This document shows positions 1 to 39,248 of a stretch of 64,000 nt of DNA, in pieces. The first letter of the stretch is position 1, and every line of letters starts with the position of its first letter. The notes beneath the pieces were generated by a model, which worked only from the letters and a program-made list of their open reading frames with translations, made no database searches and had not been told where the DNA came from. The translations under genes were made by a program, and so were the position numbers. Source of the DNA: Enterobacteria phage Ac3; sequence record OK040907, one strand, 5' to 3'.

Positions 1-674
1 CCAAATCCCGTAAACTGGACTGTTACACCGAGTCTCATCACATTATCCCGCGCTGCCTGAATGGCTCCGATGACGCGAGCAACCTGGTAGACCTGACCCC
101 TGAGGAACATTACGTTGCACACCAGCTCCTGGTTAAAATTTATCCGTCCGAGCCAAAACTGATTTACGCTGCCAACATGATGACTGTATCCACTAAATAT
201 GCTAAACGCAATAACAAAACGTTCGGTTGGATCCGTCGCAAACTGTGGGAAATCGAAAAAAACAAAGAATTCTCTCAGGAAACCCGTAAGAAAATGTCCG
301 ATGCGGTTGCCAACAAGGCGCGCCTGACCTGCCCGCACTGTGGTAAATCTGGCCTGTCTGGTAACATGAATCGTTGGCACTTCGATAATTGCCCGAACCA
401 CCCGAATCCGAAAGTGCGTCCTCCGATGTCTAAAGAACACCGTAATAACATCAGCAACGGTCTGAAAGCAATTATCCTGGAGGAAACCTCTTGCGAATTC
501 TGCGGTATGATCGGCAAGAAATGCGTGATTGCAGCTCACCGTAACTTCTGTAAGAAAAACCCGAACGGCCGTAAGAAAACCGAGAAAACCGGTACTTGCG
601 TGCACTGCGGTAAAGTTACGACCTTTGGCAACCTGAGCCGTTGGCACAACGACAACTGCAAGCACAAACACTAA
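1..674 (+). CDS. HNH homing endonuclease, C-terminal part (5' end outside window)
   Basis: Frame starting at nt 3 reads SHHIIPRCLNGSDDASNLVDLTPEEHYVAHQLL (HNH motif) then three CxxC...W-x-D/N-NC zinc-finger-like repeats; no in-frame stop upstream; E. coli-type codons. Confidence 0.75.
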   Translation, partial: KSRKLDCYTESHHIIPRCLNGSDDASNLVDLTPEEHYVAHQLLVKIYPSEPKLIYAANMMTVSTKYAKRNNKTFGWIRRKLWEIEKNKEFSQETRKKMSDAVANKARLTCPHCGKSGLSGNMNRWHFDNCPNHPNPKVRPPMSKEHRNNISNGLKAIILEETSCEFCGMIGKKCVIAAHRNFCKKNPNGRKKTEKTGTCVHCGKVTTFGNLSRWHNDNCKHKH

Positions 675-2359
675 TTGATCGTAGCAACGGAGAAACGACC
701 CACTTTCTCCATTTTGATGTGCTGACCGTAGTCCTGTGGGTCGTGGTCTTTGTGGCTGATAATGAAAAAGTTAGTATCTTTCAGGCCATCGAGAATTTTA
801 GCGACGTTTTTGATACCTTCGGCGTCGAACGCGCCATCGTACACTTCATCCAGGAACAGGCAAGAGATTTTTACACCAGAGACTTTTTCGGCGATGTCAC
901 GCCAGGTGAACAGGAGGGCGATATCGATACGTGCCTTTTCGCCTTGGGAGAAGGATGCATAAGAGAAATCTTCGCGGCCGCGGGATTTGATAGTTTCGTT
1001 GAATTCCTCGTCCAGGGTGAAAACATAGTCCGCCTCCATAATTTTCAGATAATGGTTGATCTGTTTGTTGAACAGCGGGATGTATTTCTTAATGATCGCG
1101 CCCTTGATGCCGCTGTCTTTCAGCATGTCGGTCAGGATGCCACGGTGGTATTTTTCCATCACCAGGTTGGTTTTAGTCTTCACGATCTTATCCAGCTCTT
1201 CCTGCAGGAGGGCAATTTCGTCCGCGTGGTCAATGAATTCAGAGGAAGCTTTTTCAATGGCAGCTTTAACTTTCTTAGCTTTGTCAACCGTGGTAATCAG
1301 GGACTGTTTCTTGTTACGAATATCGTTCGCCAGAGACTGTTGGGTCTTAATGTTATCACGATATTCGTCCACCAGGACTTTCAGGTTATCGCGGTGGGTG
1401 GACAGTTGTTCAAAAGAGTGGGTGCATTCGCTCACCTTATCTTTAATTTTGCTCACAACTTTATCACCGCTGGACAGTTGAGACAGGCAGGTCGGACACA
1501 GACCGCCCTCGTGGTACATGTTGATAACTTTGTTGTAGCTATCGATTTTGGATTTAATCAGCACGGCCTCCTGGCCAATTTTGTTAAAAGCATCAGTAGG
1601 GTCTTCGTCCAGCACGATGTTGACCAGACGTTCATTCGCTTCCTCGATTTCGCTTTTCAGGGTACGAGCTTCTTTAGCCAGATCGTCGTACATGTTCTGC
1701 AGGCGCGTCAGGTTGTCACCGGTCAGTTTCTTCTGACGTTCTACGTTGTCGTTGTAGATCTTGATCTGTTGGATAATAGAGTCTTTCTTCACATCCAGTA
1801 CCTGGTTCTGAGAGTTCAGTTCACGGATCAGTGCTTTGTTCAGTTTGTCCATCTCCGCCAGGGTGCCAACCTCCAGGAGGTCTTCGACCAGCTTACGGCG
1901 TGCTGGAGTGCTCAGGCCCATGAACGGAGTGTAACCCGCAGTGCCGAGCACAACAATCTGCTTGAAGCTAGCGTAAGACATACCGATCAGCTGTTCGAAC
2001 TCGGCCTGAAAATCTTTGGAAGAGGCAGATTCGTTCAGACGGGTGCCGTTCACAGTGATTTCAAAGACGTTTGGTTTTTGACCGCGTTTGATGTAATATT
2101 TCTTTTCGTCATATTCCATCCACAGTTCTACCAGGAGTTCTTTCTTATTGGTGCTGTTGATCAGCTGGCCTTTCTTAACGTCGCGGAACGGTTTACCGAA
2201 GAGGCCGAAGGTAATAGCCTCCAGCATGGTAGATTTACCGCCACCGTTACGACCAGTGATCAGGGTTTTCTGAACTTTGTCCAGCTGGATATCAACGCCG
2301 TTCTGGCCTACGCTCATAATGTTCTTGTATTTAACACGGTTCAGTTTAAAGGATTTCAT
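671..2359 (-). CDS. 46: gp46 recombination endonuclease subunit (Rad50/SbcC-like ATPase)
   Basis: 562 aa; N-terminal Walker A GRNGGGKST, central coiled coil with CPTC zinc hook, signature FSQGE, Walker B LFLDEV; partner gene 47 nearby; written in E. coli-optimal codons. Confidence 0.9.
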   Translation of the reverse strand: MKSFKLNRVKYKNIMSVGQNGVDIQLDKVQKTLITGRNGGGKSTMLEAITFGLFGKPFRDVKKGQLINSTNKKELLVELWMEYDEKKYYIKRGQKPNVFEITVNGTRLNESASSKDFQAEFEQLIGMSYASFKQIVVLGTAGYTPFMGLSTPARRKLVEDLLEVGTLAEMDKLNKALIRELNSQNQVLDVKKDSIIQQIKIYNDNVERQKKLTGDNLTRLQNMYDDLAKEARTLKSEIEEANERLVNIVLDEDPTDAFNKIGQEAVLIKSKIDSYNKVINMYHEGGLCPTCLSQLSSGDKVVSKIKDKVSECTHSFEQLSTHRDNLKVLVDEYRDNIKTQQSLANDIRNKKQSLITTVDKAKKVKAAIEKASSEFIDHADEIALLQEELDKIVKTKTNLVMEKYHRGILTDMLKDSGIKGAIIKKYIPLFNKQINHYLKIMEADYVFTLDEEFNETIKSRGREDFSYASFSQGEKARIDIALLFTWRDIAEKVSGVKISCLFLDEVYDGAFDAEGIKNVAKILDGLKDTNFFIISHKDHDPQDYGQHIKMEKVGRFSVATIN

Positions 2360-2374
2360 TTTGTATCCAATTGT

Positions 2375-3240
2375 TTAGAGGCTAGAGAATTCTTTTACCA
2401 GGGCTTGCAGGCTAGCTTCGATCGGATAACCATTTTTCACCAGCATTTTACGGAACATCACGTGTTTAGGACGGTTATAGCTGATCCACAGTTCGTACAG
2501 TTTGTCTTTGTTGTCCCAGTGGTAACCTTTGCGACGGCTGGCAATGTGAGCCTTACGAATCTCCGGATTTTTCCAGCTTGCAGCGACAGAGTTGGAAATC
2601 GGCTTTTGATATTTTGAGACGGGCACAGCGGAGCGAAAGGCTTACGAGTGTTGAGTTTGGTGCGTTTCATGGTCAGACCGTTTGCCAGATGCCACTGGAA
2701 TTTCTGTTTAGTTTTGAAGTTATTCAGACGTTCTTTGTTATCCTTACGGTTTTTCGCTACGGAGAAGTATTTCAGTGCGCGTTCACGAGCTGCATTACGG
2801 TTCTGTGGGTTGGAGTAATACTGTTGCAGGCGTTTAGAAATGGTATCGGAAACATCCTGTTTGATAAAAGAGTATTCTGCCGCAATCAGATCAACTTCTG
2901 CCAGGCTGAGGTTTTTATAGGTTTTGCCAGACATCATACGATTCAGCGCGTTCAGCATTTTACCGTTTTTACCTTTTGCCAGGAGGAAGTGTGCTTTAAA
3001 GTGGTTAAAGTGGCTGAGGTTCACCAGGTTCCAGGTAGATTTGAGATATTCCGGGAAGATAGATTTCGGCAGCACGTGATGTGCTTCGGTCTTGCCCGGA
3101 GTCTTAACGGTGCTGTTAACGCTAATGAAGTTGATATAGGACTTAGCGTCTTCCTCAGACAGCGCCAGTTTTTCCACCAGTTCTTTGATCAGGAATTCAT
3201 CGTTGATGTCCAGTTTGAAGTTTTTAACAAAAGATTCCTT
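2375..3240 (-). pseudogene. HNH (Mob-like) homing endonuclease, frameshifted and without a clear start
   Basis: Upstream frame has AHHVLPKS...NLVNLSHFNHFKAH; coding continues in another frame (SWKNPEIRKAHIASRRKGYHWD...) after an apparent 1-nt deletion near 2600; in-frame stop at 3241-3243 with no ATG before GTG 3177. Confidence 0.6.
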
Positions 3241-3488
3241 TTAATGTATCTTTTAGACCATTCTATCATATCATCATAATCTAAAAAGTATTCATCAAAT
3301 TCAGCCATGCAAACAACGCCTTGTGCTGTTTTTGATGTAATATAAATTATTCCAACATATCTAGAATCTTCTTCGGTATAATCAATATTTGCTATAAATT
3401 CATCATTAATGTCAAATGTCGAAAACTTCACAGTATGCATCCTTAATACAAGATACAGCCATATCTCGTAATGATTTAGGTGTGTCAT
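3189..3488 (-). CDS. hypothetical protein (3' end runs into recoded block; boundaries uncertain)
   Basis: 99-aa ORF, AT-rich; contains FDINDEF...EED motif also present in the adjacent HNH remnant; overlaps 3412..3675 in another frame. Confidence 0.35.
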   Translation of the reverse strand: MTHLNHYEIWLYLVLRMHTVKFSTFDINDEFIANIDYTEEDSRYVGIIYITSKTAQGVVCMAEFDEYFLDYDDMIEWSKRYIKRNLLLKTSNWTSTMNS

Positions 3489-3675
3489 TATCTAAAATGT
3501 TGAAGTTAAAAGATACAGCCCAGTCAGTGCAGACCGTAACCTTTTTAATACAATTATCTTCAACCTCTAACGGTTCAAACCAATATTCAATAATTTCTTT
3601 ATGCCCAATATCATCTTTTACTTCGCATTCAAAATGCTGACTCATCATAACATTTTTAAATTCATCAAAAGTCAT
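3412..3675 (-). CDS. hypothetical early protein
   Basis: 87-aa ORF immediately downstream of gene 47, start overlapping its stop. Confidence 0.5.
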   Translation of the reverse strand: MTFDEFKNVMMSQHFECEVKDDIGHKEIIEYWFEPLEVEDNCIKKVTVCTDWAVSFNFNILDNDTPKSLRDMAVSCIKDAYCEVFDI

Positions 3676-4691
3676 TGTGTTGCCTCTACATATAACTGAT
3701 TTGCATATTGAATAAGTGCTTCGCGGTCAGAATCAGTGATGTCTGGAATTGCATTAATGTATTCTTCCATCAACGTCTGAAGAGATTGAACTTCAACTTC
3801 TTCGCTTTCATCTGACTCGACAGAGTTATCAATTTTTGACACAACTCGTAATGAATGCACAACTTTTTCTAGTTCAGATTCGAACTTCGTCAGATTTTTG
3901 TCTACCTCAGTTACTATAACACGTACTGATAGATTTGTAAAATCTTTATAGTCAATTTTTCCTTTAAATGGATAATGAATTCTACGATGCCAGGTAGTAT
4001 TGTTTGGAATAAATTCCATTCGTTCTGTTTCTGTATCAAACATCCAGAACCCGCGAGGGTCATTCTCGTCACCTGCAGTTAGTGTCCATGGTGTCCCAAT
4101 ATATCTGACGTTTGCAGCCTCAGAAATAGTATGGAAGTGACCAGACCACACTTCTTTATAAGTCTTAAGGAAATCAGGTTCAAGACCGTGAGATTTCATT
4201 CCTTTATAAAAATAAAATCCATTCAGTTCCCAGTGACCAACACAAAAAGAAGCAGATGAAGTTTTTATGTGCTCGAGAATTTCACCAGTATTTTCTTCAC
4301 ACATCCAAGGAATTAAATCAATTAAACATCCGTCAAAATCTACTGTAGTAGGCTTATCATATACTTTAACATTAGGATATTTAGCCAAAAGCTCAGTAGA
4401 GGCATTTGGAGTTAAAGTATTTTTAAAGTGCATATCATGGTTTCCTACAACAGTATGTAGGGTAATACCAGCATCATCAAGCATTTGAACTATTTCACGA
4501 GCGAACTCCATAGTTTTATGCGTGATTGCTTTTCGCACATCAAAAATATCGCCATATTGAATCCAGGTAGTAATTCCATTTTTCTTAGAATATTCTATTG
4601 CTTGTTTAATTCCATCCAACTGAATGGATTGAACCCACTCGTCATCGGCTTTAACGCCTAAATGCCAATCACCTAAATTTAAAATTTTCAT
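3672..4691 (-). CDS. 47: gp47 recombination endonuclease subunit (Mre11-like phosphoesterase)
   Basis: 339 aa; metallophosphoesterase motifs GDWHLG, GDIFD, GNHD; adjacent to gene 46. Confidence 0.92.
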   Translation of the reverse strand: MKILNLGDWHLGVKADDEWVQSIQLDGIKQAIEYSKKNGITTWIQYGDIFDVRKAITHKTMEFAREIVQMLDDAGITLHTVVGNHDMHFKNTLTPNASTELLAKYPNVKVYDKPTTVDFDGCLIDLIPWMCEENTGEILEHIKTSSASFCVGHWELNGFYFYKGMKSHGLEPDFLKTYKEVWSGHFHTISEAANVRYIGTPWTLTAGDENDPRGFWMFDTETERMEFIPNNTTWHRRIHYPFKGKIDYKDFTNLSVRVIVTEVDKNLTKFESELEKVVHSLRVVSKIDNSVESDESEEVEVQSLQTLMEEYINAIPDITDSDREALIQYANQLYVEATQ

Positions 4692-4852
4692 ATATCAAGA
4701 ACCGTCATTGAAATGCAAAATAAAATTATTGAAATAAACCCATCTGGTGTGCTAAAGAACCCAATCCAACATGCTCTAGTGAATAGATAAAATGCAAGAA
4801 AAAGTATCACATATCCAAGAAATATCATTATATCAAACTCCGTATAAAGCTA

Positions 4853-4866
4853 AAGGGCCGAAGCCC
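4853..4866 (-). terminator. stem-loop terminator after a-gt
   Basis: GC hairpin AGGGCCGAAGCCCT with flanking T-rich run. Confidence 0.45.
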
Positions 4867-4867
4867 T

Positions 4868-6070
4868 TTATTTTGTAATAATGTCAAACTGTTCTTTAAA
4901 GCAGAAGCTTGAATCTTGATGCTGATACAAAAATTCATAAGCTTTTTCGCGTTCGCGGTCATAAAGAGTTCGGTCAGATGACAGTTCTTTAATACGTTCA
5001 AATGTTGATTCCATGTCATTTTCATCAAACCAAATGATACCGCTATCATGCGAGGTCAAAGGAGTATTATCAACACGGAATTTTAAATTTTCGCCAGTAG
5101 ATTTCCAAAATACCGGAATTGTTCCACATGCACCAAGCTCGAGATGAGTATATTCTAAAGAACGTTGTAGATATTTTTTATCCAACTTACTCAACTGATA
5201 ACCAAAACCGGATTTACTCATACGTTCAAGCATTTCGCTATTTACATAACGGTCAAGAATTTGCGTTGGCAAATTAGGAGCAATTTTAATTTGGTCTACT
5301 TGATGAAGACGATAATACTCGTATGGAATTCCTTTTTCTTTAATAGGAATGAACGCTGGAGAACGTTCCAGACCTTCCATAATAGTACTTAGTCCTGCAG
5401 GTTTAAGATGTTTTTCGTGAAAATCAAACATCTGATAAAAACCTTTCCATGTAGTCGTACGACCAATCCAACGGTTGATATTCATGTTAATTTCAGAAAC
5501 ATCTTTCCAGTAAGTTGACCGAACCTTCGCAATATCCATAGGAGGCTGAAAGTTATATACGGTCGGTGCTTCTTCAATATCATCAAACAGAGAAACAGTT
5601 TCTGGATACCACTCTTTCATCAGAACTTTATTAAAATCACCATTATCAGAATGGCTAAAAATAACATCAGCTCGACGAACAGTTTCTTCTAATCCCAAAT
5701 TTCGACGCAAAGAAAGAGAAGAATGGTCATGCTGATAAACTACAACACGAACAGAAGGTTTAATATTATCAATAATTTTTTTATAGTTATTAATAGTGTC
5801 TTCTTCAACCGAAGTAGCAGGAACTGAATTGATAATTAGAATATCACAATCATTTACCAGCTTAAGTGTTTTATCGTATTCTTTTGCCAATAAAACCGGA
5901 ATTGAAAATGATTTATAATCATGCGCGCAATTACGAGTAAATGATTTATCTTTAGCATAAACCAAAGTCACTTCATGACCATTTTTAATAAACCAATCAC
6001 GTTGCTCGAGTGAGAATTTTGTTACACCACAACCTTCAAGACCTCGAGCCATAAAAATACATACTTTCAT
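4868..6070 (-). CDS. a-gt: DNA alpha-glucosyltransferase
   Basis: 400 aa, length and sequence match T4 AGT (MRxCIFMARGLEGCGVTKFSLEQRDWFIKNGHEVTLVYAKD...). Confidence 0.9.
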   Translation of the reverse strand: MKVCIFMARGLEGCGVTKFSLEQRDWFIKNGHEVTLVYAKDKSFTRNCAHDYKSFSIPVLLAKEYDKTLKLVNDCDILIINSVPATSVEEDTINNYKKIIDNIKPSVRVVVYQHDHSSLSLRRNLGLEETVRRADVIFSHSDNGDFNKVLMKEWYPETVSLFDDIEEAPTVYNFQPPMDIAKVRSTYWKDVSEINMNINRWIGRTTTWKGFYQMFDFHEKHLKPAGLSTIMEGLERSPAFIPIKEKGIPYEYYRLHQVDQIKIAPNLPTQILDRYVNSEMLERMSKSGFGYQLSKLDKKYLQRSLEYTHLELGACGTIPVFWKSTGENLKFRVDNTPLTSHDSGIIWFDENDMESTFERIKELSSDRTLYDREREKAYEFLYQHQDSSFCFKEQFDIITK

Positions 6071-6123
6071 TTAATATCCTCTTTGTTTTGGTTTATTTTA
6101 CCAAAAATTTATAAAGCAATATA

Positions 6124-6137
6124 GGAGCCGAAGCTCC
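6124..6137 (-). terminator. stem-loop (terminator-like)
   Basis: hairpin GGAGCCGAAGCTCC in intergenic region upstream of a-gt. Confidence 0.4.
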
Positions 6138-6313
6138 TATCCACATAATACGCCATACAGAGGCTCATTAGAACTTTTAAATTTTATACGCTTATATGTT
6201 ATAGTTCCTTCTGCTTTAGCTTTATCATGAGACTCTTTAAAGCGTCTCATCATTTCCTCTTTAGAGGAACGAATTTTATTATAATCTATTTCAGAAGTCT
6301 GGATGTTCATCTT

Positions 6314-6520
6314 TCATAACTGCCACCATTTTTTGACTTGATAAGAATCAACCCACACTTTCATATTAGGGTCTGCTCTTACAATAGGAGGATTAACTTC
6401 TTTAATTGAACTATCATGGTATTCTTTTTCAGAAATTTTCACACAAAGATGACCATTCAAAGATTCAGTAAATCCTGCATTAATTTTAAGACGCTTGAAT
6501 TTTACGTGTGTAAGCATCAA
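6314..6520 (-). CDS. hypothetical protein
   Basis: 68-aa ORF in minus-strand early gene run. Confidence 0.5.
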   Translation of the reverse strand: MMLTHVKFKRLKINAGFTESLNGHLCVKISEKEYHDSSIKEVNPPIVRADPNMKVWVDSYQVKKWWQL

Positions 6521-6803
6521 TCATATCCTCAATCTGCGATCTAGTAGTCTTCCAAAGAATACTGATAAGTTCATCGTTATATGGCTGTTTTAGAATATCC
6601 CGACTTTTCTTGATAGCATATTCGTATTGAGCAAAATTATTATTTTCAGCCGCAATCTGAGCATGCTTATAAAGACGATTCAGTTCGCGTTTGTTTTTAG
6701 ACAATAACTTATTTGCTTTTCTTTCTGCTTCAAGACGGTTCTTTTCTTCAATAGAAGAAATAAGCTTTTCCACTTCATCATTAATTTCGGGTTTATCAGT
6801 CAT
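6486..6803 (-). CDS. hypothetical protein
   Basis: 105-aa ORF, coiled-coil rich. Confidence 0.55.
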   Translation of the reverse strand: MTDKPEINDEVEKLISSIEEKNRLEAERKANKLLSKNKRELNRLYKHAQIAAENNNFAQYEYAIKKSRDILKQPYNDELISILWKTTRSQIEDMIDAYTRKIQAS

Positions 6804-6804
6804 A

Positions 6805-7023
6805 TTATTTCTCTAATATAAAATAAAAATCATCATCTGTTAAATGATACCGATAGTTTAATTCTACACCATTAGATTTAAAAGCGGTATCATACGGATT
6901 TTCTGGATCAATATCAATGTCAAGAGCTAAAACTTCCCTGAGATACATTTTAAGTAAATAGGGAATAGCTTCAACTTCAGGTATTTCTTCCAAGAATCCG
7001 GAGAGGTTAATCGTTAGCCTCAT
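6805..7023 (-). CDS. hypothetical protein
   Basis: 72-aa ORF, start overlaps gene 55 stop. Confidence 0.5.
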
Positions 7024-7570
7024 ATAAAAAATCCAAACTAGGAGAATCGTCTACAACACTTTTCTTTTCAGCCCCCGGTGTTCTATAGGTTGATTCTTCG
7101 TAATGCGTCATTTTATCATAGATGTCTTGAATAAAAGTTTCATCTACTAACGCAACCATATCGTCGTCACGACTGTCATAGACATTGTGAACGAAGTAAC
7201 TATATTTCTTTGCAACTTCCTTACGTTCTTTTTTAATACGTTGGACGAATGCATTAAAACAAGCTTGAGTTATATACGCATGTGGGTTTTTATATTTCGT
7301 TTCATCAAAATTGTGAAGCCCCTTAATAGAAGCTTCTATACCATCTGCAATCATTTCTTGTTTCCAAGACTGGGTGTATCCTGAAAAGTTGAAACGTTTA
7401 GATAAGCCTTCTGCAATAAGCATAATGGCTAATCCGATAGTATCATTCTGACGAACTACTTTATTTGGGTCTTTATTATTTGCTAATTCTGTTTTCCAAT
7501 CAATAATAGCTTGTAAAAGCTCTTTATTGTTTACGTAATTATATTTAGGCTTAGTTTCTGACATTTTCAC
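7007..7570 (-). CDS. 55: gp55 late-transcription sigma factor
   Basis: 187 aa, sequence and size match T4 gp55. Confidence 0.9.
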
Positions 7571-7642
7571 CTCTTAGCTCAATTCATAGATCTATTATAT
7601 CATAATATTTGAAGATCTATCTTAAAGCATAGAGGATATCAG

Positions 7643-7912
7643 TTATCTAAGTAAACAGTATGCTTGGAACACTTTCTCCATCATCTTTTTAAATTCATGA
7701 ATATCTATGTAATGACTAGTTAGTTCAGCATGATATAAAAAGTCTAAAAACTTTTCATGTGTACTAACATATTCACTTTCATTTAATTCAGAAACATGGC
7801 TTTCCCAGTATCCAACACCAGTCTTATTTGGGAAAAATGAAATTTTCATGTATTGGTCAACATAGAAAATGCCATAATTTTCAATAGTAATAGAAATATT
7901 AATAAATTTCAT
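7643..7912 (-). CDS. hypothetical protein
   Basis: 89-aa ORF. Confidence 0.5.
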   Translation of the reverse strand: MKFINISITIENYGIFYVDQYMKISFFPNKTGVGYWESHVSELNESEYVSTHEKFLDFLYHAELTSHYIDIHEFKKMMEKVFQAYCLLR

Positions 7913-8124
7913 ACATTCATCAACTTAGCCGCTTCAAGAGCTGCATCTAGTGAATCAAATTGGTCAACGTATTCAATCAATTCGCCGTAATTGGCATATA
8001 ACCACCATTGGCTAAATTCATACTCAAGGATGAATCCATTTCCTTCAATTTGAGTTAAACCATTGCCGTTTGTATTTACTTCATATCCGGCAAGACGCAA
8101 ATCGTTAATAAGAGCTTCGTTCAT
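7909..8124 (-). CDS. hypothetical protein
   Basis: 71-aa ORF with overlapping stop/start. Confidence 0.5.
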   Translation of the reverse strand: MNEALINDLRLAGYEVNTNGNGLTQIEGNGFILEYEFSQWWLYANYGELIEYVDQFDSLDAALEAAKLMNV

Positions 8125-9339: not shown

Positions 9340-9375
9340 TGTTAATAATACCACAGTTTGAGCTTGTTGTAAACA
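9340..9375 (-). promoter_or_regulatory. T4-type early promoter
   Basis: minus-strand TTTCACAAAGTTGTTTACA (-35 GTTTAC) with A/T-rich -10 downstream; motif recurs through the early region. Confidence 0.4.
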
Positions 9376-9455
9376 ACTTTGTGAAAATTATTTTAGGGAA
9401 TGATAAGAAGGGAACGATAGCTTAGAATGGTAATATACAGAATGTGAGAAAGAAA

Positions 9456-14148: not shown

Positions 14149-14319
14149 TTAGTTGCGCAGCTTATTCAGTTCCTCGTCATCGATCCAAGACTCCAGACCG
14201 GACGGCAGAGCACATTCGATCTCCCACAGGAGTTCCTCAATTTTCTGCAGGCGATCCAGTTCCTCAGCCGGGATGGTCACCATGGACGGTGCACGGCTTA
14301 CGTTAATGTCATAGATCAT
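14149..14319 (-). CDS. small acidic hypothetical protein (E. coli-optimal codons)
   Basis: 56 aa MIYDINVSRAPSMVTIPAEELDRLQKIEELLWEIECALPSGLESWIDDEELNKLRN; below the 60-aa ORF-track cutoff; island bounded exactly by its start and stop codons. Confidence 0.5.
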   Translation of the reverse strand: MIYDINVSRAPSMVTIPAEELDRLQKIEELLWEIECALPSGLESWIDDEELNKLRN

Positions 14320-20393: not shown

Positions 20394-20419
20394 TTTCTGT
20401 TCCTCCGTAGTTGATAGTT

Positions 20420-20452
20420 GTATAGTATCACAGAGGAACAGTCTTGTAAACC
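20420..20452 (-). promoter_or_regulatory. T4-type early promoter
   Basis: minus-strand GTTTACA, spacer, TGTGATACTATACAACTATCAACTA module. Confidence 0.45.
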
Positions 20453-22523: not shown

Positions 22524-22555
22524 TTTATTCTCCAAATCTGTATCAGTTGATAGTT

Positions 22556-22588
22556 GTATAGTACCATAAAGCTTTATGCTTGTAAACA
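22556..22588 (-). promoter_or_regulatory. T4-type early promoter
   Basis: minus-strand TTTCACAAAGTTGTTTACA (-35) and TACTATACAACTATCAACTGA (-10 region). Confidence 0.5.
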
Positions 22589-22616
22589 ACTTTGTGAAAA
22601 ATTTTTGAAATAAAAA

Positions 22617-22637: not shown

Positions 22638-23648
22638 TTACTTATAGTAGGAGCGGTGGTTCTCCAGGTAAACTTTTTCCAGAAAGTCATCCCAGAAACC
22701 CATGTCAACCTTTTGCTGCATGCCATTCTTGGATGCTTCCGTGCTCGCAGCCTCCACCTGATCAACTACGTCCTCGAGGAATTCCTGCACGGTTTTGAAC
22801 GGGTGCTTGCCCAGTTTGACATCCAGGATAAACGGCGCATCCTGCAGTGGGTAGATCAGGTCGCCGGTTTTGTAAATTTCCAGGAGCTGCAGGCCACCGC
22901 GGCATGCATGGGACAGAGCTTTCCAGTCGATGCCTTCGTTTGCCTCTGCTTTGCGGGCGCGTTCGCCGTATTCAGCATCCAGTTTATTCAGGGATTGTTT
23001 CAGTTCGATCAGGCTCAGGGTAGTCTGATATTTACGACCCAGCACCGTATAGAAAGTTTGCGGGCCGGTTTTTTCGTGGTTGTGAAACACCCATTCACAG
23101 AATTCGTTTTCCGGCAGGCGGTGTTTGATATCTTCGATTTTGGTACGGCGTTGACCCTGAGTGCCGTCTTCGCGATAAACGTTGCGCTGGTCCGGGATCT
23201 GATTCACGACTTTCAGGACGTCGCGCAGAGCGGCCAGACGGGAGCCCTTAACACCATATTTAGAGGCTTGTTTGCGTACATAGCCCAGGTAAGATTTCAT
23301 ATTGGTAGTGTAGAAGCGGCTGCGGTTGTCCTGAATGAATTTCCAAACGTCAGGCAGATCGCTCTTAACCACCAGTTCTGGCGGCGTATGCAGCATGTCG
23401 AGTGCCACGGTCTCACCGTCCGCAGCCAGTTTGAAAAAATACTTGAGGCTATACAGTTCGTGGTCGATGTCATCTTTGGTATTCTTGCTAGAGGTATTGT
23501 TGGTGTTTTTAGACATGTGTTCTTTCACGTTGCCGATCAGAATGTCACGTGCCGGTGGCACGAAGATCTCTTTGAAGTCGACATCGCTTTCCGGGGTGGA
23601 AGTGCCGTACAGGTGGCTGCCAAAGTAGGATTTCATCACAGTCTTCAT
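22638..23648 (-). CDS. Pol-beta-superfamily nucleotidyltransferase
   Basis: 336 aa; N-terminal GSHLYGTSTPESDVDF (GS...DxD NTase motif) with later acidic residues and helical C-terminal region; E. coli-optimal codons; start overlaps upstream stop (TAATG). Confidence 0.65.
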   Translation of the reverse strand: MKTVMKSYFGSHLYGTSTPESDVDFKEIFVPPARDILIGNVKEHMSKNTNNTSSKNTKDDIDHELYSLKYFFKLAADGETVALDMLHTPPELVVKSDLPDVWKFIQDNRSRFYTTNMKSYLGYVRKQASKYGVKGSRLAALRDVLKVVNQIPDQRNVYREDGTQGQRRTKIEDIKHRLPENEFCEWVFHNHEKTGPQTFYTVLGRKYQTTLSLIELKQSLNKLDAEYGERARKAEANEGIDWKALSHACRGGLQLLEIYKTGDLIYPLQDAPFILDVKLGKHPFKTVQEFLEDVVDQVEAASTEASKNGMQQKVDMGFWDDFLEKVYLENHRSYYK

Positions 23649-24109
23649 TATTCAGCTTTGTATTCGATCACCGGACACACTTTCGCTTTGCGCGCTTTCA
23701 GGAACTCAACAATGATAGATTTCTTCGGTTGGATTGGCGGCAGGCCTTTGTAAGCGCGATCGATGTTTTCAACGTGCAGCGCGTAATCTTTCTTCCATTT
23801 GTAGTCTTTGTATTTCTCACGCAGGTGCGCCGGAATCACGAAGGAGCCGATAATCAGGAGAACCACCAGGAGTGCCAGAATGAACGCGGATGGCAGGAGG
23901 GTCCACAGGCTACCGAAGATCAGCCAGCGCTGCAGGGATTCAGCACAGATAATAGTCAGACCAACCAGGATGGCACAACCGAAGATGGAAACGAAAAACG
24001 TCGGGATGGCGATAGACCAGAAGTACGCGCACAGGGTTTTAGGGCGCTGCCACTCGTCGTTAAACAGTTTGAACAGCTTATAGTGCCAAGAGTTTTCATT
24101 AATGATCAT
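23648..24109 (-). CDS. small membrane protein coupled to the NTase
   Basis: 153 aa, 2-3 hydrophobic helices then basic tail; AAGGA SD; E. coli-optimal codons. Confidence 0.6.
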   Translation of the reverse strand: MIINENSWHYKLFKLFNDEWQRPKTLCAYFWSIAIPTFFVSIFGCAILVGLTIICAESLQRWLIFGSLWTLLPSAFILALLVVLLIIGSFVIPAHLREKYKDYKWKKDYALHVENIDRAYKGLPPIQPKKSIIVEFLKARKAKVCPVIEYKAE

Positions 24110-25949: not shown

Positions 25950-26146
25950 GCCATGTGAGTTGCAACTTCATCACACATATTATAACGTTTCTTAAGAAGT
26001 TCTACAAGTTCTTCACTAGTAACTTCATCCATGTCGACGAAAAAATCACCATTAATGATGACGTAGATATTTCCTTCTTGATTGAGTGCTTCAATTTTCA
26101 TGATGTTCTCCTCTTTATCTGATAGTTGTATAGTATCACAGCTCAA
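25913..26146 (-). CDS. hypothetical protein
   Basis: 77-aa ORF downstream of an early promoter. Confidence 0.45.
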
Positions 26147-28083: not shown

Positions 28084-28514
28084 TTATTTCGGTTTACCTT
28101 CCTTCACGAAGTCTGGGTACGGATAAAAGCCAGAGTAGAAACCTTCGCCTTTGTGGTTGATACAACCTTTGTTGGAACAATAGCACCAGTAATCGAAATC
28201 GCAAGCCATTTCGTCGTTGCACAGGGCGAAAACGACCGGCCATTTACATTTTTCACAGTGCGCGTTTTTCAGGATGGAAGTCTGGGATACCGCCAGGTGA
28301 CTTTCAGGCAGTATTCCTCCACATGCTGTTTGCGACCTTTCTTGTCGATGAAGGTGTATTCAACGAAGGTACCGATGTAATCTTTATCCACGTCGTGCGG
28401 AGAGTTGATCGGGCACTTAGTACGGCAGATGCGTTCCCACTGACGAATGATTACAGCCTTGTTTTTCGGGTCGAACGGGTGTGGATAATGTACTTTTACA
28501 GCAGCGGCTCCCAA
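28084..28514 (-). pseudogene. Cys/His-rich putative zinc-binding domain, disrupted by frameshifts (probably once fused to the upstream macro domain)
   Basis: Coding in E. coli-optimal codons switches frame near 28292-28297 (..KVTW / AVSQTSILKNAHCEKCKW..); its start has no ATG and overlaps the macro gene stop, where re-inserting one G would fuse the frames. Confidence 0.5.
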
Positions 28515-28963
28515 TCAACGATTACGATTTCCAGTTTGGAAGAATAGGTGTCCAGGATACCTTCAATGATGTCCCAGTTGCCTTTACCGATGCCGGCGCC
28601 GATGCGCGGCATGTAGATGGTTGGTTTGATCAGTTTGTTTTCACCGAATTCGTTCAGCTCCAGCATACAATTCATCAGCGCAGAATATTCAAAGTTTGGG
28701 CCCGGCTGGAACTGAGTGTACAGGTTAAAACAGTACGCTTTGTGGGTGCGAAAGTACTTTTCATACACGGAGTAGCTACCCAGTTTAGTCACGTCGCCCC
28801 ATTCGGTCTGCAGCTTGTCAGCTTCCAGGATTTTCGGAAACGCTTTGGTCAGCTGACCGGCTACACCCGCTTTCATGGTATGGAAGCAGTTACAGCCGTG
28901 AGCGATGTTTTTACCTTCGGCAAACAGCGCTACGATATCGCCTTTGATGTATTTGACAATCAT
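28496..28963 (-). CDS. macro domain protein, TARG1/OARD1/DarG-like (putative ADP-ribose hydrolase)
   Basis: 155 aa; KGDIVALF...HGCNCFHTMKAGVAGQL...MPRIGAGIGKGNWD matches TARG1-family macro motifs; E. coli-optimal codons; ATGA overlap with upstream gene. Confidence 0.7.
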   Translation of the reverse strand: MIVKYIKGDIVALFAEGKNIAHGCNCFHTMKAGVAGQLTKAFPKILEADKLQTEWGDVTKLGSYSVYEKYFRTHKAYCFNLYTQFQPGPNFEYSALMNCMLELNEFGENKLIKPTIYMPRIGAGIGKGNWDIIEGILDTYSSKLEIVIVDWEPLL

Positions 28964-31840: not shown

Positions 31841-32427
31841 TGCATTCCAATCACAAAAAATTGAGGACGAACTGTTTCACCTGTTTCAGCATTATAGCTT
31901 CGACAACAGTGTTGTACCGTTTTAATATGGATATTGTAAATCTTATCCATATCAGGAGCTTTAATAGGTTCGTCAATTATGTACAAGATACGAGAAAGCG
32001 ATAACCCACGGAATTTATGACCTTCATTACCGATAAAACTACGGACAGAATCAGTAAATAAACGGAATCGAATATCATCGCTAGAATAACGAGAAAATTC
32101 TTTTTCAATGTTGCCAGCAGAAATTTTAGCGTAAGCTGAAGTATTAGAAAGAACAATAACTGTTCCGCCATCATACAGCCAATTAGCAGCAAAGTTAGTC
32201 ACAGCAATTGATTTACCGGATTGACGTCCACCATCTATACGAAGTGTGCAGTACTGTTTGAGCACATCTTCCATTGGTGGAAGATAATCATTCTTACAAA
32301 TTTCTTCTACTCTAGCATCAGAATGGTGTGTAAAAGCATTCATCAGGGATAGATAAGGACCAGTTAAAAATGTTCTCATTTTATTCTCTCTAAGTTTGGG
32401 CCATTCCGTGGCGCATGAATTGTCCAT
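31837..32427 (-). CDS. P-loop NTPase-like protein (start may be internal)
   Basis: GGRQSGKS Walker A-like and IIDE Walker B-like motifs. Confidence 0.5.
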   Translation of the reverse strand: MDNSCATEWPKLRENKMRTFLTGPYLSLMNAFTHHSDARVEEICKNDYLPPMEDVLKQYCTLRIDGGRQSGKSIAVTNFAANWLYDGGTVIVLSNTSAYAKISAGNIEKEFSRYSSDDIRFRLFTDSVRSFIGNEGHKFRGLSLSRILYIIDEPIKAPDMDKIYNIHIKTVQHCCRSYNAETGETVRPQFFVIGMQ

Positions 32428-32520
32428 TTCTGTATTTACCCATTACCGCACTTGGGCTCGACCTTATCACAGGTTGGCGGGAATCCCTCATAGAATCATG
32501 AGGTCCAGGTTGTTCCCATA

Positions 32521-32994
32521 TTATTTGAACGATTTAACGTACTGAATAGAACCCTTACTATTCACAAAGGCAATTTTACCATTTTTATTATACATGGTAG
32601 CAGTACGCTGATAACCATAGGTTTGTTTACCAGATTGATAACCAACTAATGCAAAATTATCTTCACCCATTTTATTCTGTTTAGCGCGAATGCGTTCATG
32701 ACCATGTGCCATAAGAACCTTAGCATCACCAGTTGCAATGGATCGACGAGTTTTTTCATCTTCAACTGCATTAACAAAGTCGTCAAATGAATCAAATTTA
32801 GCATGAGATTTATTATACAATTTTCCATCTACTGCATAATTATATCCCTGTACATCCATCTCAACTTCTGTACCATCATCCAATACAGCAGTAATTTTTT
32901 GACCTTTTTTAAATTTCAAAAGATCAGTAAAAGATTCAGCAATAATTTGAGAATTAATAGCTGCTTCAGTGATAAATTCTTGATATGTTTTCAT
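32521..32994 (-). CDS. internal head protein with capsid targeting sequence
   Basis: 157 aa starting MKTYQEFITEA, the conserved N-terminal targeting sequence of T4 internal proteins; adjacent to denV as T4 ipII/ipIII. Confidence 0.65.
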   Translation of the reverse strand: MKTYQEFITEAAINSQIIAESFTDLLKFKKGQKITAVLDDGTEVEMDVQGYNYAVDGKLYNKSHAKFDSFDDFVNAVEDEKTRRSIATGDAKVLMAHGHERIRAKQNKMGEDNFALVGYQSGKQTYGYQRTATMYNKNGKIAFVNSKGSIQYVKSFK

Positions 32995-33003
32995 GGGTTT
33001 CCT

Positions 33004-33420
33004 TTAAATGTAAATATTTTTACCGTAATACTTATACCAATGTGGTTTCATTAAAATTTTTTCATCAAGTCGTTGTTGACTCAATTTAATAGCTGATTTG
33101 CATGGATTATAATCATTTTTCCATTCTATTGGAATATCGCTGATGTCAGGAACTTCAGTATCTTTTATACTGAACCCGCGTTTTAAGCATTCCGTTATAA
33201 TGTCTAATTGACGCTTTCGCAAAAATTCTAACTTATCGTAAAAGAACGTAACATGACCAGAACCTAAAATAAACTCGGAAGATATTTTAAAATCTTTAAC
33301 GCGCTTACCGTTTGCCACATGCTTACGAACTATACCAAAAACACGCGGCAATTCACGGTATTCTGCGATTAAATGTTGATCAGCAAGTTCAGATACTAAA
33401 GTCAAATTAATACGAGTCAT
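33004..33420 (-). CDS. denV: endonuclease V (pyrimidine dimer DNA glycosylase)
   Basis: 138 aa [29 protein letters not shown]... matches T4 DenV. Confidence 0.9.
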
Positions 33421-33443
33421 TTTATCCCTCCAAGTAACTGTGA

Positions 33444-33476
33444 ATATACTATCACAATTCTAGGAGAAAGTAAACA
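33444..33476 (-). promoter_or_regulatory. T4-type early promoter
   Basis: minus-strand GTTTAC -35 and TAGTAT -10 upstream of denV. Confidence 0.45.
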
Positions 33477-33479
33477 ACT

Positions 33480-34448
<969 letters not shown>

Positions 34449-34467
<19 letters not shown>

Positions 34468-34937
34468 TCAGTGATAAAGTTATTTAAATTTTGAGTATAT
34501 TTCTTTTCATCAAAAATCTTTTGTTGTCTGCGTAGCCGCCATGGCATTTCAATGAACGTGTACCATATCCCAGATAATATTGCTGCAGTAAAAATATTAA
34601 CAAGTATGGTTAAAAGAATCCAATCTCCTATTCTGTCCATTGGATTTTTTATAAAAAAGTAAAATACGAATGATGTCACAGGAAGACTAATAATATACCA
34701 CAGAATCATAATTTTATCTGTGAACCAATCAGCGTTCGTTAACTTAGCGCGACCATTATGAATACACACGAATTTATCATCTGTTATAATAGATGGCTTA
34801 GCTGCTTGATATCCCATTCTAAACTCCCTAATCAACAAATTTTTCATATCTTCGGAACAACCATTCCAGTCAACTCTATCAACTGAAATGCCATCATCCC
34901 CATCATCTAAATCATACCAGCGAGTTTTTAAAATCAT
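34449..34937 (-). CDS. membrane protein (C-terminal ..ECRKLK tail family)
   Basis: 162 aa, hydrophobic helices. Confidence 0.5.
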
Positions 34938-35239
34938 TTAATTTTCCTACAATCACTCACAAACTCTTCCATTGATTCTTTTTCAATATAAGACATGTAG
35001 CTATTATATTCCTTTAATTGTATTTTGTAATCTTTTTTTCTTTGCCAATTTATTTTAAAATTATCATAATGAAAATATAACATGGTACCAAAGAATGAAA
35101 ATAATGAAATCGCTATAGTATAATGAAGTTCACTCCAAACTTCTATTATATCTATTATACCGCTGACGTTACTACGGATGTTTAAAATAAGACAGTCAAT
35201 TAACAATCCAAAAAGACTACCCGCAAGAGCTGCAGCCAA
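34934..35239 (-). CDS. membrane protein (C-terminal ..DCRKIK tail family)
   Basis: 101 aa, hydrophobic N terminus. Confidence 0.5.
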   Translation of the reverse strand: MAAALAGSLFGLLIDCLILNIRSNVSGIIDIIEVWSELHYTIAISLFSFFGTMLYFHYDNFKINWQRKKDYKIQLKEYNSYMSYIEKESMEEFVSDCRKIK

Positions 35240-35289
35240 CGCTACAGCAAAAATTAAAAATGACTCAGGAAGAGAATATTTGACTTTAT

Positions 35290-35683
35290 TCAGTTCTGGC
35301 TTTTGCAGCGGCTCTCTTTTACGAATTTCATGATTTCATCAAATTCGTGAGCCGCCAGCTTCAGCTGGTGTTCTTTCTTGATTTTCTTGCACTGCGCTTT
35401 CCAGTCACGAACACGTTTGCGATAATGACGACCCTGGTACCAGTAACCGATCCAGTTGATCGGCACGAGCAGGAGCGGAACCACCAGCGGCAGGATCAGG
35501 GTAGCGCCGAAGATTGCGCCGGATTCGATATCAGTCATAACGTCGATAACCATACCGGCAATAACCAGAATAACAAAAGAGACCACAACCACCGGACCGA
35601 TCAGCACGTCAGTGGAGATAATTTGGCGCTTCAGTTCGTATTTCAGTGGTTTGCTCGGCAGGTACAGAGACGGTTTGGACATA
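35290..35683 (-). CDS. membrane protein (same family, E. coli-optimal codons)
   Basis: 130 aa from ATG 35683 (MSKPSLYLPSK...), two hydrophobic helices, basic tail ending ..ESRCKSQN; ORF track extends to 35703 through native sequence. Confidence 0.55.
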
Positions 35684-36259
35684 TTCTCTACATTCCTTAA
35701 CAAATTTTTCTAATAATAAATCGCTTTCAAAATTGGGATTTTCTACGAATTTATCAAAAAGATCATCGACAATAGTTAAGATATTCTTTTTACTAAGAAT
35801 ACGTTTATTTTCATATTTTGTTTCAGAGTCAACTATAAGAGTAAAGAAATATTTCTTGCCCTGAAATTTTACAGTAGTATCAATATAGAATAAATTTGAC
35901 TTTTGTAAATTACGTTTAAACCATGCATCACTTAAACTATAAACGCCAAGATAATCATAATCGTCGTTTAAATAACAGACCGTCCATTCAGGAGAAACAA
36001 AATCAGTAAATTCAACGTCAAAATCGCATGTTAATAAATGAATTGATTCAATACTGTTAATAAGTATTCCAGGACGTATTAAAGACTTTTTACCTCTAAA
36101 AAATCTTCCAGAAAGACTTTCAACAGTTTCATATGAAGAACCCCAATAATAATTACGTCCTTCTGCCATACGTTTAAGAGCATTTAATAATTGGTCTGGA
36201 ACATCAACCTGTCTTTGGAACTCTTCAAACATTGAATTGAAATCACTTTGCATTTTCAT
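35609..36259 (-). CDS. hypothetical protein (true 3' end probably near 35690)
   Basis: 216-aa ORF; last ~25 codons read through the recoded gene in another frame, so the native stop appears lost; ..KFVKECREY resembles the family tail. Confidence 0.5.
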   Translation of the reverse strand: MKMQSDFNSMFEEFQRQVDVPDQLLNALKRMAEGRNYYWGSSYETVESLSGRFFRGKKSLIRPGILINSIESIHLLTCDFDVEFTDFVSPEWTVCYLNDDYDYLGVYSLSDAWFKRNLQKSNLFYIDTTVKFQGKKYFFTLIVDSETKYENKRILSKKNILTIVDDLFDKFVENPNFESDLLLEKFVKECREYVQTVSVPAEQTTEIRTEAPNYLH

Positions 36260-36280
36260 TCCTACTTACTCCAAGTAATA

Positions 36281-36294
36281 GGGGCCGAAGCCCC
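36281..36294. terminator. GC hairpin (terminator-like)
   Basis: GGGGCCGAAGCCCC palindrome between genes; no clear T-run on the minus side. Confidence 0.35.
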
Positions 36295-36300
36295 TTATCA

Positions 36301-36894
36301 TTATTTCAGAGAATTAATATATTCCTGAACATCGGCAGAGGTAGTTTCAACCCCAGAAATATTACCATTAAAGGTTTCAACTCGAGCAAGAGTATCTTCA
36401 ATATCAACCTTAGTCAGTGCTGCAATTTCAACTACATCATCAGCAGTACTAATTCCAAGGGCATTCGCGGCGCGAGTTTCACGGATATATTCCAATTTAA
36501 CTGCAAGTTCTTGGCGAGCATCATCTAACTCAACTACTTTCTTGGCAATTTCAATTCGCATTTCAGCATAACCATCAGCTTTAGTAGTCAACTGCTCAGC
36601 TGTTCGACGATATAGTAAACCAAGTTTAGCATGCATTGTTACATCTTGACCTTCCGAAAGGAGCTTGCGAATTTCACGCTCTTTTGATTCGGCCTGCTTA
36701 TTCTTTTCGACAATAAGTTCACGAATACGCTTTTCTTCATTAATAGATTTAACAGAAGCAGTTTTTAGATCTTTAATTTTATCAAGCAATTTTGCTGCTG
36801 CGGCAGTATACTGCTCTTCAACAGATAGATTTTTAGCCATAGCAGAACCAAGTTTAGTGCGAATAAACTCAACAATTTTCTTCAGTGTGTTCAT
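36301..36894 (-). CDS. coiled-coil hypothetical protein
   Basis: 197 aa, helical, heptad-rich. Confidence 0.5.
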
Positions 36895-36937
36895 AGTATT
36901 TCCTTAGGTTGATTAGAAATTAAAATCTGCAGAAGAA

Positions 36938-37471
36938 TTATATCATGCTACTTAAGAGATGTAAACTATTTTTAATTTTACAAATTCGTTCAGCTTCTTC
37001 AACAGCGGCAGTGATAATGCTTTTAGCTATAGGAGTACTAATATTAGTAGCTTTTACACTTAACACGATTTCTTTATCTTTACCAGGCCAACCCCACGAT
37101 TTTTCACCATGAGTGCCTTTAATTACAGCAGACACCTCAAGTGAGCATCCATTATCGCATGTTTTTACATTAACAACCCAAGTGTCACTTTTCTCAACCG
37201 GTTTATCCCAGTAAATATTAAGAATACGTGGGACATCAAATTTAGCAGGGCAAATCTTAACCGTAAGACCTTCGCTTTCTAGCCAATTAATAAGAGGGCG
37301 TTCATACATGCGGCGATGTGGGCTTTGAACTCGACAAGCTTTGTACCCATTGCTTGCGGCTTCACTAAGCTCTTCTAATACATGCTTTTGCATTATTGAT
37401 AAGATACCATCAAAAGATTTTTCGGAAGTTTCATTCAGTTCGGTATAAAGAGACATAACAGTTTTCCTCAA
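36938..37471 (-). CDS. hypothetical protein
   Basis: 177-aa ORF. Confidence 0.5.
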   Translation of the reverse strand: MRKTVMSLYTELNETSEKSFDGILSIMQKHVLEELSEAASNGYKACRVQSPHRRMYERPLINWLESEGLTVKICPAKFDVPRILNIYWDKPVEKSDTWVVNVKTCDNGCSLEVSAVIKGTHGEKSWGWPGKDKEIVLSVKATNISTPIAKSIITAAVEEAERICKIKNSLHLLSSMI

Positions 37472-37512
37472 ATTATAGGCTCATAATATCTCAATCATGA
37501 GCCTATGTAAAC

Positions 37513-37776
37513 TTATTTCATATTATTGAAATATTCTTCTGCGATTTCGTCGTTATCATGGTAAACTTTAGAAGACAGTTTAACATAACCTTCAGCAGTG
37601 AACATGTTAATCACAACCTTTACAGTATACCACTGACCATCTTCATTACCCATTACTGCGTAAGTTTCAAACATCGGATGATCAGGACCGATAACTTTAA
37701 TATCATTCACTGTACGACCAAAATCTTCTGAAACACATTTCATAAAGAAGTTGAACAGTTCACCGTAATTATCCAT
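37513..37776 (-). CDS. hypothetical protein
   Basis: ATG 37776 with GGAGAA SD; ORF track starts at a TTG at 37788. Confidence 0.5.
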   Translation of the reverse strand: MDNYGELFNFFMKCVSEDFGRTVNDIKVIGPDHPMFETYAVMGNEDGQWYTVKVVINMFTAEGYVKLSSKVYHDNDEIAEEYFNNMK

Positions 37777-37817
37777 TTCATTCTCCAAGTTGTTTTCTGT
37801 ATCAGTAGTTGATAGTT

Positions 37818-37851
37818 GTATAGTACCATAGAAGAACAGGGATGTAAACAG
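37818..37851 (-). promoter_or_regulatory. T4-type early promoter
   Basis: minus-strand TTTCACAAAACTGTTTACA (-35) and TACTATACAACTATCAACTA (-10 region). Confidence 0.5.
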
Positions 37852-38010: not shown

Positions 38011-38017
38011 AAGAATG

Positions 38018-39230: not shown

Positions 39231-39248
39231 ATTTTCCTCACTTATAAT

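Follow-up and report, generated by a model that had tools for sequence, protein, structure and literature searches.

Which gene lies between genes 46 and 46.1 of this phage, and which of its unusual features are native? At this place, the window, i.e., the whole stretch of 64,000 nucleotides that was analyzed, contains a minus-strand open reading frame (ORF) with an HNH motif. A sequence-only reading had described it as a decayed HNH homing endonuclease gene which has no ATG start, changes its frame, shares its first residues with the upstream ORF and adjoins a boundary of base composition. The ORF and its motif were found as described. The region from 2375 to 3228 on the minus strand very probably represents a Mob-type HNH homing endonuclease gene in its RB51 version; it is located at gene 46, carries a frameshift and owes its odd features to a rewrite of its codons.

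Synonymous rewriting of five patches

In an ungapped base-by-base comparison, the window is colinear without gaps with positions 32001-96000 of phage RB51 (NC_012635), window position w corresponding to RB51 position 32000+w. A megablast search of window positions 1-8000 against the phage collection also yielded a single colinear match to RB51 and RB68 (32003-40000) with 89.8% identity. The differences from RB51 fall into five patches (2-3226, 14152-14314, 22639-24104, 28085-28955, and 35291-35677) and three isolated SNPs; outside of these, no difference was found across 64 kb. In the first patch, 15-45 differences per 100 bases (mostly 20-30) were counted up to position 3226 and zero beyond.

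Inside the patches about 25% of the nucleotides are changed, and the encoded proteins are identical. The product of gene 46 agrees with that of RB51 in 563 of 563 amino acids despite 424 nucleotide changes, and the product of the adjacent mobB-like gene in 224 of 224 despite 153 changes. The GC content of the patches is raised from 0.33 in the native sequence to 0.47-0.54. In the recoded gene 46, all 52 leucines are encoded by CTG or CTC and every arginine by CGT or CGC, while the codons ATA, GGA, and GGG are not used. The intergenic spacer of 15 nt (2360-2374) shows no differences from RB51. Between 2602 and 2692, where two ORFs overlap, the changes affect third codon positions in each of the two frames (20 and 17, respectively), and after this double recoding the protein of neither frame is preserved. 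Start and stop codons of overlapping neighbors are broken at the patch edges, here as well as at the other patches: the endonuclease gene, RB32ORF110c, RB32ORF111c, tk.3, and e.3 lost their starts through the rewrite, and 46.1, tk.3, and e.5 their stops. The other four patches share these traits, and their edges coincide with CDS borders. Based on the identical proteins, the E. coli-type codons, the untouched spacer and the broken overlaps, the patches are read as a rewrite and not as natural divergence. The region 2-3226 is an artificial synonymous rewrite to E. coli-preferred codons, which was carried out ORF by ORF and ignored overlaps.

It is unlikely that the patches represent a physically built, engineered derivative of RB51 rather than an edit of the sequence in silico. 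Clean codon optimization delimited by coding sequences would be in line with gene synthesis, but the designer of a viable phage would avoid destroying the overlapping starts and stops of the neighbors, as well as scrambling both frames of an ORF overlap. Moreover, the recoded DNA had no match in the phage collection or in the plasmid collection. In IMG/VR, zero exact-pattern matches were obtained for the recoded junction and for the native junction, and this collection is therefore uninformative for either of them.

The rewrite accounts for most of what appeared unusual at this locus. Its last recoded base is 3226, where a native C on the plus strand was replaced by A, changing GTGA to GTTA on the coding strand. 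The composition boundary, which had been placed at about 3240, actually lies at this base and exists because the recoding ends there; the GC content falls sharply from about 0.47 to about 0.30 near position 3230. The single change at 3226 removes both the GTG start of the endonuclease gene and the stop of gene 46.1 (TGA to TTA). Gene 46.1 (DUF5487) is located at 3225..3431 on the minus strand, with a GTG start at 3429-3431 and a native TGA stop at 3225-3227 which reads TTA in the window. Since this stop is lost, the ORF of gene 46.1 runs on to 3189 in the window.

The missing start codon is explained in the same way. No ATG is found on the minus strand between the in-frame stop at 3241-3243 and the HNH motif, as had been stated; however, this absence of a start is not native, because the GTG at 3226-3228 was treated as an ordinary valine codon and changed to GTT. 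The apparent switch of frame near 2600 results from the zone in which two overlapping ORFs were both recoded. The two copies of the DINDEF motif described below show synonymous differences, which had been taken for natural ones; they are present because only one of the copies lies inside the rewritten block. Thus, the GC jump, the absent start, the run-on of 46.1, the frame switch near 2600 and the synonymous repeat differences are recoding artefacts, and these seemingly unusual features are uninformative on the evolution of the phage.

The endonuclease gene and its frameshift

The N-terminal part of the endonuclease is encoded at 2706..3228 on the minus strand and contains the HNH motif EAHHVLPKS...WNLVNLSHFNHFKAH. 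According to the annotation of RB68 and the sequence, its native start is the GTG at 3226-3228, which overlaps the TGA of gene 46.1 as GTGA. The C-terminal part (2375..2700, minus strand) follows in a frame shifted by -1 and corresponds to codons ~176-284 of the intact protein, of which the window keeps the amino acids only from about 2600 downwards. The two parts are separated by the inactivating lesion at 2701..2705, which is a run of five A in native RB51 and RB68 and of six A in intact copies; in the window this homopolymer is broken up by the recoding.

The intact orthologue of phage SHFML-26 (YP_009279050) has a length of 284 amino acids and aligns along the whole RB51 region. Compared to it, RB51 lacks one A of the A6 run at nucleotide ~524 of the ORF (gap at alignment column 523), i.e., at codon ~175. 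A frameshift is thus present as the sequence-only reading had proposed, but not through the loss of a C near 2600, which is about 100 nt away from the actual lesion. RB68, which was deposited separately, has the same A5 as RB51. In T2, an independent deletion of 2 nt is located 85 nt further on than the RB51 lesion, and in G2133 the gene is also interrupted by a disruption differing from that of RB51. An intact gene at the same position was found in relatives. Among the best 60 of about 71 records listed, 56 contain the gene intact in one uninterrupted piece, including T6 and PP01, whereas those of RB51, RB68, and G2133 are interrupted. As the reading frame is broken relative to the intact orthologues (SHFML-26, T6, and others), the RB51 gene was classified as a pseudogene. 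The loss of the A disconnects the C-terminal region from the HNH domain, and the endonuclease of RB51 and RB68 is dead or truncated, in agreement with the decayed state that had been suggested.

A run of A is a classic place for sequencing errors and for ribosomal slippage, and the change from A6 to A5 could accordingly stem from a homopolymer error, or a programmed frameshift could still yield the full-length RB51 endonuclease. Both are quite improbable given the identical A5 in the separate RB68 deposit, the single-frame protein in the 56 records mentioned above and the different disruptions in T2 and G2133, as expected once endonuclease genes stop spreading.

The family of the gene was assigned by motif and homology. 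Four putative endonuclease genes have been described for RB51, HNH types among them (PMC2993671). RefSeq already labels the gene as "homing endonuclease" in numerous phages, RB68 and T6 among them. The protein matches phrog_655 ("homing endonuclease") with E=7.8e-45 over residues 1-282 and phrog_12434 ("HNH endonuclease") with E=4.4e-15. In addition, a tblastn match to the annotated mobD gene of RB9 was obtained (29.6% identity, E=4e-11, residues 47-281). The motif EAHHVLPKS...WNLVNL...NHFKAH has the pattern of the catalytic motif of the HNH superfamily. The residues E48, H50, H51, P54, N67, H76, and H80 are invariant when the protein is aligned with five homologues, the mobB-like gene being one of them.

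General domain collections were less informative for this protein. Pfam gave no HNH match even at E<=10, NCBIfam no HNH assignment, and searches of the PDB with the single sequence and with a profile nothing significant; the neighboring mobB-like protein alone yields a match to PF01844, which is sub-threshold (E=0.0068). An AlphaFold2 model calculated from an alignment of six sequences reached a mean pLDDT of 55.6 and less than 50 in the region of the motif, which is too low for assessing the beta-beta-alpha metal-finger fold. The assignment to the HNH group is hence a prediction from the motif and the homology to phage families, by which the gene is classified as a putative Mob-type (MobD-like) free-standing HNH homing endonuclease gene. 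In the searched literature, no paper on this particular endonuclease and no enzymatic or genetic evidence of its cleavage or homing was found.

Junctions at gene 46 and the DINDEF repeat

Gene 46, encoding an SbcC/Rad50-like recombination nuclease subunit, is located at 671..2359 on the minus strand and is fully recoded in the window. From the other side, as had been noted, a second HNH gene converges on it; this is a mobB-like homing endonuclease gene (RB32ORF054w/RB51ORF057; 1..674, plus strand), which overlaps gene 46 by 4 nt. The 5′ end of this gene is cut by the window edge; it is also recoded, and its product matches phrog_655 with E=2e-68. Gene 46 is thereby bracketed by two free-standing HNH homing endonuclease genes. 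Only one T4 late-promoter motif (TATAAATA) was identified; it is located outside of the window, on the upstream side of the convergent mobB-like gene. The late-promoter scan revealed none serving the endonuclease gene proximal to gene 46, which sits inside the operon reaching from gene 47 to gene 46.

The way in which the element was inserted can be seen from the empty site of T4. There, the sequence reads ...AATCTTTT GTGAAGAATTTTAAACTT AATAGAGTAAAATAT..., the stop of 46.1 overlaps the GTG start of gene 46 as GTGA, and the protein begins with MKNFKLNRVKY. RB51 has the same sequence through CTT and continues with the endonuclease sequence GACATTAATGATGAATTT... instead. After the endonuclease stop, 15 nt follow and then ATGAAATCATTTAAACTT AATAGAGTAAAATAT..., with gene 46 starting as MKSFKLNRVKY. 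The element is inserted precisely behind codon 6 of gene 46.

The 5′ end that gene 46 originally had and that was captured by the element (3211..3228, minus strand; natively GTGAAGAATTTTAAACTT, encoding MKNFKL) now forms codons 1-6 of the endonuclease gene, and its native form is identical to the gene 46 start of T4 including the upstream context. A replacement 5′ end is carried by the endonuclease cassette at 2342-2359 (minus strand); it consists of an ATG start and comprises the first six codons, encoding MKSFKL. The two segments form an imperfect direct repeat. The spacer that links the stop of the endonuclease gene to the ATG of gene 46 (2360..2374, minus strand) has the sequence ACAATTGGATACAAA and carries the new ribosome-binding region of gene 46. 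The 3′ end of the cassette is thus composed of this spacer and ATG-AAA-TCA-TTT-AAA-CTT.

Because the element sits after codon 6, the initiation region and the first six codons of gene 46 serve the endonuclease ORF. This ORF has taken over the ribosome-binding site, the GTG start and the residues MKNFKL of gene 46 and would be translationally coupled to 46.1. The 3′ end of the cassette restores a complete gene 46 beginning with MKSFKL.

Directly behind the captured codons, the endonuclease shares the hexapeptide DINDEF with the product of gene 46.1. The first copy of the repeat is located at 3396..3415 on the minus strand within codons 6-12 of gene 46.1 and begins one base before the stop of gene 46.2 (3412-3414). 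The second one is located at 3193..3212 on the minus strand (codons 6-12 of the endonuclease gene) and reads TTGACATTAATGATGAATTT in native DNA, whereas in the window it is recoded and its DNA match to the first copy is lost. In native DNA, the copies are identical over a run of 20 bases, which has the same codon phase in both genes, and they lie 203 nt apart; DINDEF occupies codons 7-12 of both genes. Of the proposed relation between the endonuclease N-terminus and the upstream ORF, the part concerning DINDEF (3396-3413 in gene 46.1) thus holds, and the half formed by MKNFKL comes from gene 46 instead. The duplication, for which about 200 bp had been assumed, spans 12 codons or about 45 nt of native sequence with an exact core of 20 nt.

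It is very improbable that the DINDEF match is a coincidence which is limited to the hexapeptide and holds no historical information. The endonuclease homologues of other genera are devoid of the motif, and the similarity of the proteins ends at residue 12: without the first 12 residues it is at chance level, the observed score being reached by 463 of 3000 shuffles. The DNA, however, argues for a common origin of the two copies beyond the hexapeptide. The local DNA alignment score is 27 compared to 10.9 ± 1.7 for shuffled sequences, none of 1000 shuffles reached this score, and just seven exact direct repeats of at least 20 nt are present in 49 kb of native sequence, of which the remaining six look like sequences of the T4 promoter type and an annotated flanking repeat.

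An extension of the similarity to 46.1 through "EED...Y...I..S" was rejected on the basis of the same 463 of 3000 shuffles; a sub-window chosen post hoc was marginal (32 of 3000). The segment YINFIS..NST is conserved among the endonuclease homologues and is therefore not derived from 46.1. The 20-mer was also considered as a promoter and rejected, since it contains TTGACA but is followed by no convincing -10 region. A sigma-70 scan identified 13 sites, with 9.1 ± 3.1 expected, and none at the repeat.

The left junction may have arisen by short-homology recombination between the coupled junctions 46.2/46.1 and 46.1/46, a route whose chances are rated not far below even. The two junctions, TGTGAAGTTTTCGACATTT (46.2/46.1) and TGTGAAGAATTTTAAACTT (46.1/46), are identical at 13 of 19 positions as counted by hand. 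A donor in which 46.2 is followed by codons 1-12 of 46.1 fused to the endonuclease was not found; all of the 69 apparent full-coverage matches (69/69) are two-piece joins across the known arrangement. A recombination or splice scar had been suspected at this locus; the insertion did leave a genuine recombination scar in the form of the N-terminal repeat, and the composition boundary is the edge of the artificial recoding. Finally, there is virtually no chance that the GC-rich block represents foreign DNA of natural origin which arrived together with the endonuclease gene, and that a stretch of 46.1 of about 200 bp was duplicated across the junction and diverged synonymously afterwards: the drop of the GC content near 3230 and the genuine DINDEF match between two ORFs would fit, but this origin was refuted by the base-for-base comparison with RB51, as the block is colinear with the AT-rich RB51 sequence with 0 amino acid changes in 787 codons at about 25% nucleotide changes, its codons are restricted to the E. 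coli-optimal set, four more patches with these traits, likewise delimited by CDS borders, are present, and the similarity past residue 12 is not significant.

Relation to known systems and distribution of the element

The element is of an already known kind and fits the standard cycle of T-even homing endonucleases, consisting of invasion, fixation at one site and decay by homopolymer slippage. The small new detail is the anatomy of the junctions, with the captured start and six codons of gene 46, the 20-nt copy from 46.1, the replacement 5′ end and the variable patch in gene 46 described below; it predicts where the target of the enzyme lies.

The closest counterparts are the Mob-type endonucleases MobA-E of T4, of which MobD is closest by sequence and MobE best studied. 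They are likewise free-standing, intron-less and wedged between conserved T-even genes, and they have the HH...N...H motif and the membership in phrog_655 in common with the present element. For mobE and other free-standing endonucleases of T4, start/stop overlaps and translational coupling have been described (PMC2988022). The UAAUGA overlap of nrdA and mobE resembles the overlap of the endonuclease start with the upstream stop found here (PMC2988022). In contrast to the T4 Mob-type genes, the element is located inside the coding sequence of its target, after codon 6 of gene 46, and not between genes. It borrows the start and six codons of the target and supplies a replacement 5′ end. Further differences are its GTG start and the frameshift of the RB51 copy.

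In Aeromonas phage Aeh1, an insertion of mobE reportedly splits nrdA into two genes. There, too, a Mob-type HNH gene sits inside the coding sequence of a conserved gene of the phage, and the target is still functional. Unlike in Aeh1, gene 46 is not split into two polypeptides; six codons are left fused to the endonuclease, and since these codons are duplicated, gene 46 stays one intact ORF.

By tblastn, the gene was found with at least 95% identity in about 71 T-even phage records (about 99% identical). Of about 517 Tequatrovirus-like records, about 71 are occupied and about 446 are empty at the 46.1/46 junction; the empty sites are of T4-type, RB5-type, or intermediate. The element is thus patchily distributed across close relatives, always at one fixed site and with exact breakpoints, which is the pattern of a homing endonuclease gene. 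The T4-type empty site is present in about 72 records and agrees 100% in its right flank with the occupied genomes. The RB5-type is present in about 310 records. Over the first 90 nt of gene 46, 13 positions distinguish the two types; further downstream they differ at about 0-2 positions per 30 nt, with a divergence of roughly 1%. The substitution cluster at the insertion site is circumstantial evidence in line with co-conversion around a homing site or with variation of the target site.

Intact copies of the element probably spread by cutting empty sites near codons 6-30 of gene 46, followed by recombinational repair. Intronless homing has been described for SegF and SegG of T4 (PMC2993671), and the same course would be expected here, i.e., a double-strand break in an endonuclease-less genome, repair from the carrier and co-conversion of flanking markers. 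The localized variation at the gene 46 insertion site is consistent with such a SegF/SegG-like spread. SegF and SegG differ in being GIY-YIG enzymes with demonstrated activity, whereas homing of the HNH element is deduced.

Tentatively, and with somewhat less than an even chance of being right as a whole, the native locus might be read as the record of an endonuclease colonizing the 5′ end of an essential gene and capturing its initiation region and six codons. The donated, diverged 5′ end would possibly immunize the carrier, the left junction would stem from the two look-alike GTGA junctions, and the cluster at codons 6-30 would reflect an ongoing contest between endonuclease and target. If true, this contest plays out inside the gene for the Rad50-like gp46, which is needed to repair the break.

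Homologues were also found in two other genera. In the Mosigvirus vB_EcoM-172859UKE1, a homologue with about 70% DNA identity over the shared region is located directly 5′ of gene 46, after gene 46.2. In the Gelderlandvirus Melville, a homologue with 44% identity (tblastn) is located directly 5′ of gene 46, after gene 47. In both of them the endonuclease stop overlaps the start of gene 46. From this position, the endonuclease lineage is taken to be specialized for the 5′ end of gene 46. The N-termini of these homologues are unrelated, with neither MKNFKL nor DINDEF, and no 46.1 lies in between. As both are devoid of these segments, the mosaic of 12 codons is regarded as a local acquisition within Tequatrovirus.

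Gene 46 and neighbouring endonuclease genes

The first 30 codons of gene 46 (SbcC/Rad50-like recombination nuclease subunit, minus strand), a stretch of 90 nt at 2270-2359, form a variation hotspot among native relatives. The T4-type and RB5-type alleles, which lack an endonuclease insertion at the 46.1/46 junction, differ here at 13 positions, and at about 1% of positions farther downstream. Directly 3′ of the site where the endonuclease gene is inserted, this variable stretch is a candidate for the target or the co-conversion tract.

The mobB-like HNH endonuclease gene (1..674, plus strand), which is convergent with gene 46, starts beyond the window edge. The T4 late-promoter consensus TATAAATA is located 33 nt upstream of its start, at RB51 31920-31927, and thus outside the window, which begins about 75 nt farther on. 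Late promoters are the usual expression signal of T4 free-standing endonuclease genes. A relative, phage G9062, has a further endonuclease insertion close to the 46/47 nuclease operon: a gene annotated as 'HNH endonuclease' (L013 2958-3291) that overlaps gene 47 at its upstream end, a place which is occupied by gene 47.1 in RB51.

Further recoded patches and their effect on overlapping genes

Comparison with RB51 identified four patches besides 2-3226 which are rewritten synonymously with E. coli-preferred codons: 14152-14314 (RB32ORF081c), 22639-24104 (nrdC.11 and RB32ORF096c), 28085-28955 (RB32ORF111c, tk.3 and tk.4) and 35291-35677 (e.4). Their GC content rises from a native 0.34-0.38 to 0.48-0.54, with zero amino-acid changes within the main recoded coding sequences.

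Overlapping neighbour genes were damaged by the recoding at 28085-28500, 35290-35310 and 35651-35680. The start codon ATG is changed to ATA in RB32ORF110c, to GTA in RB32ORF111c and tk.3, and to CTG in e.3, while the stop codons of tk.3 (TGA to TAT) and e.5 (TAA to CAA) are lost as well. Any 'missing start' or 'read-through' in these three intervals would be an artefact of recoding.

Exact repeats and isolated base differences

Two families of exact repeats of 19-31 nt, TGTAAACAACTTTGTGAAA... and AGTTGATAGTTGTATAGTA..., were found in intergenic native sequence at 9367-9387, 22580-22600, 41663-41693 and 41994-42024, as well as at 20407-20433, 22545-22568, 26120-26141 and 37805-37830. Presumably, they resemble reverse complements of the -35 and -10 regions of T4 early promoters. 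Furthermore, an exact direct repeat of 25 nt is present on both sides of RB32ORF132c (37978-38002 and 38537-38561), in agreement with a note in the annotation of RB51, 'flanked by 34 bp imperfect direct repeat'. RB32ORF132c may therefore be a further example of a small ORF that is mobile or was inserted.

Finally, three lone single-base differences from NC_012635.1 are located outside the recoded patches, at 17918 (C in the window, T in RB51), 51140 and 60975. The source may be a relative that is almost identical to RB51; alternatively, these differences may be point edits, made either deliberately or at random.
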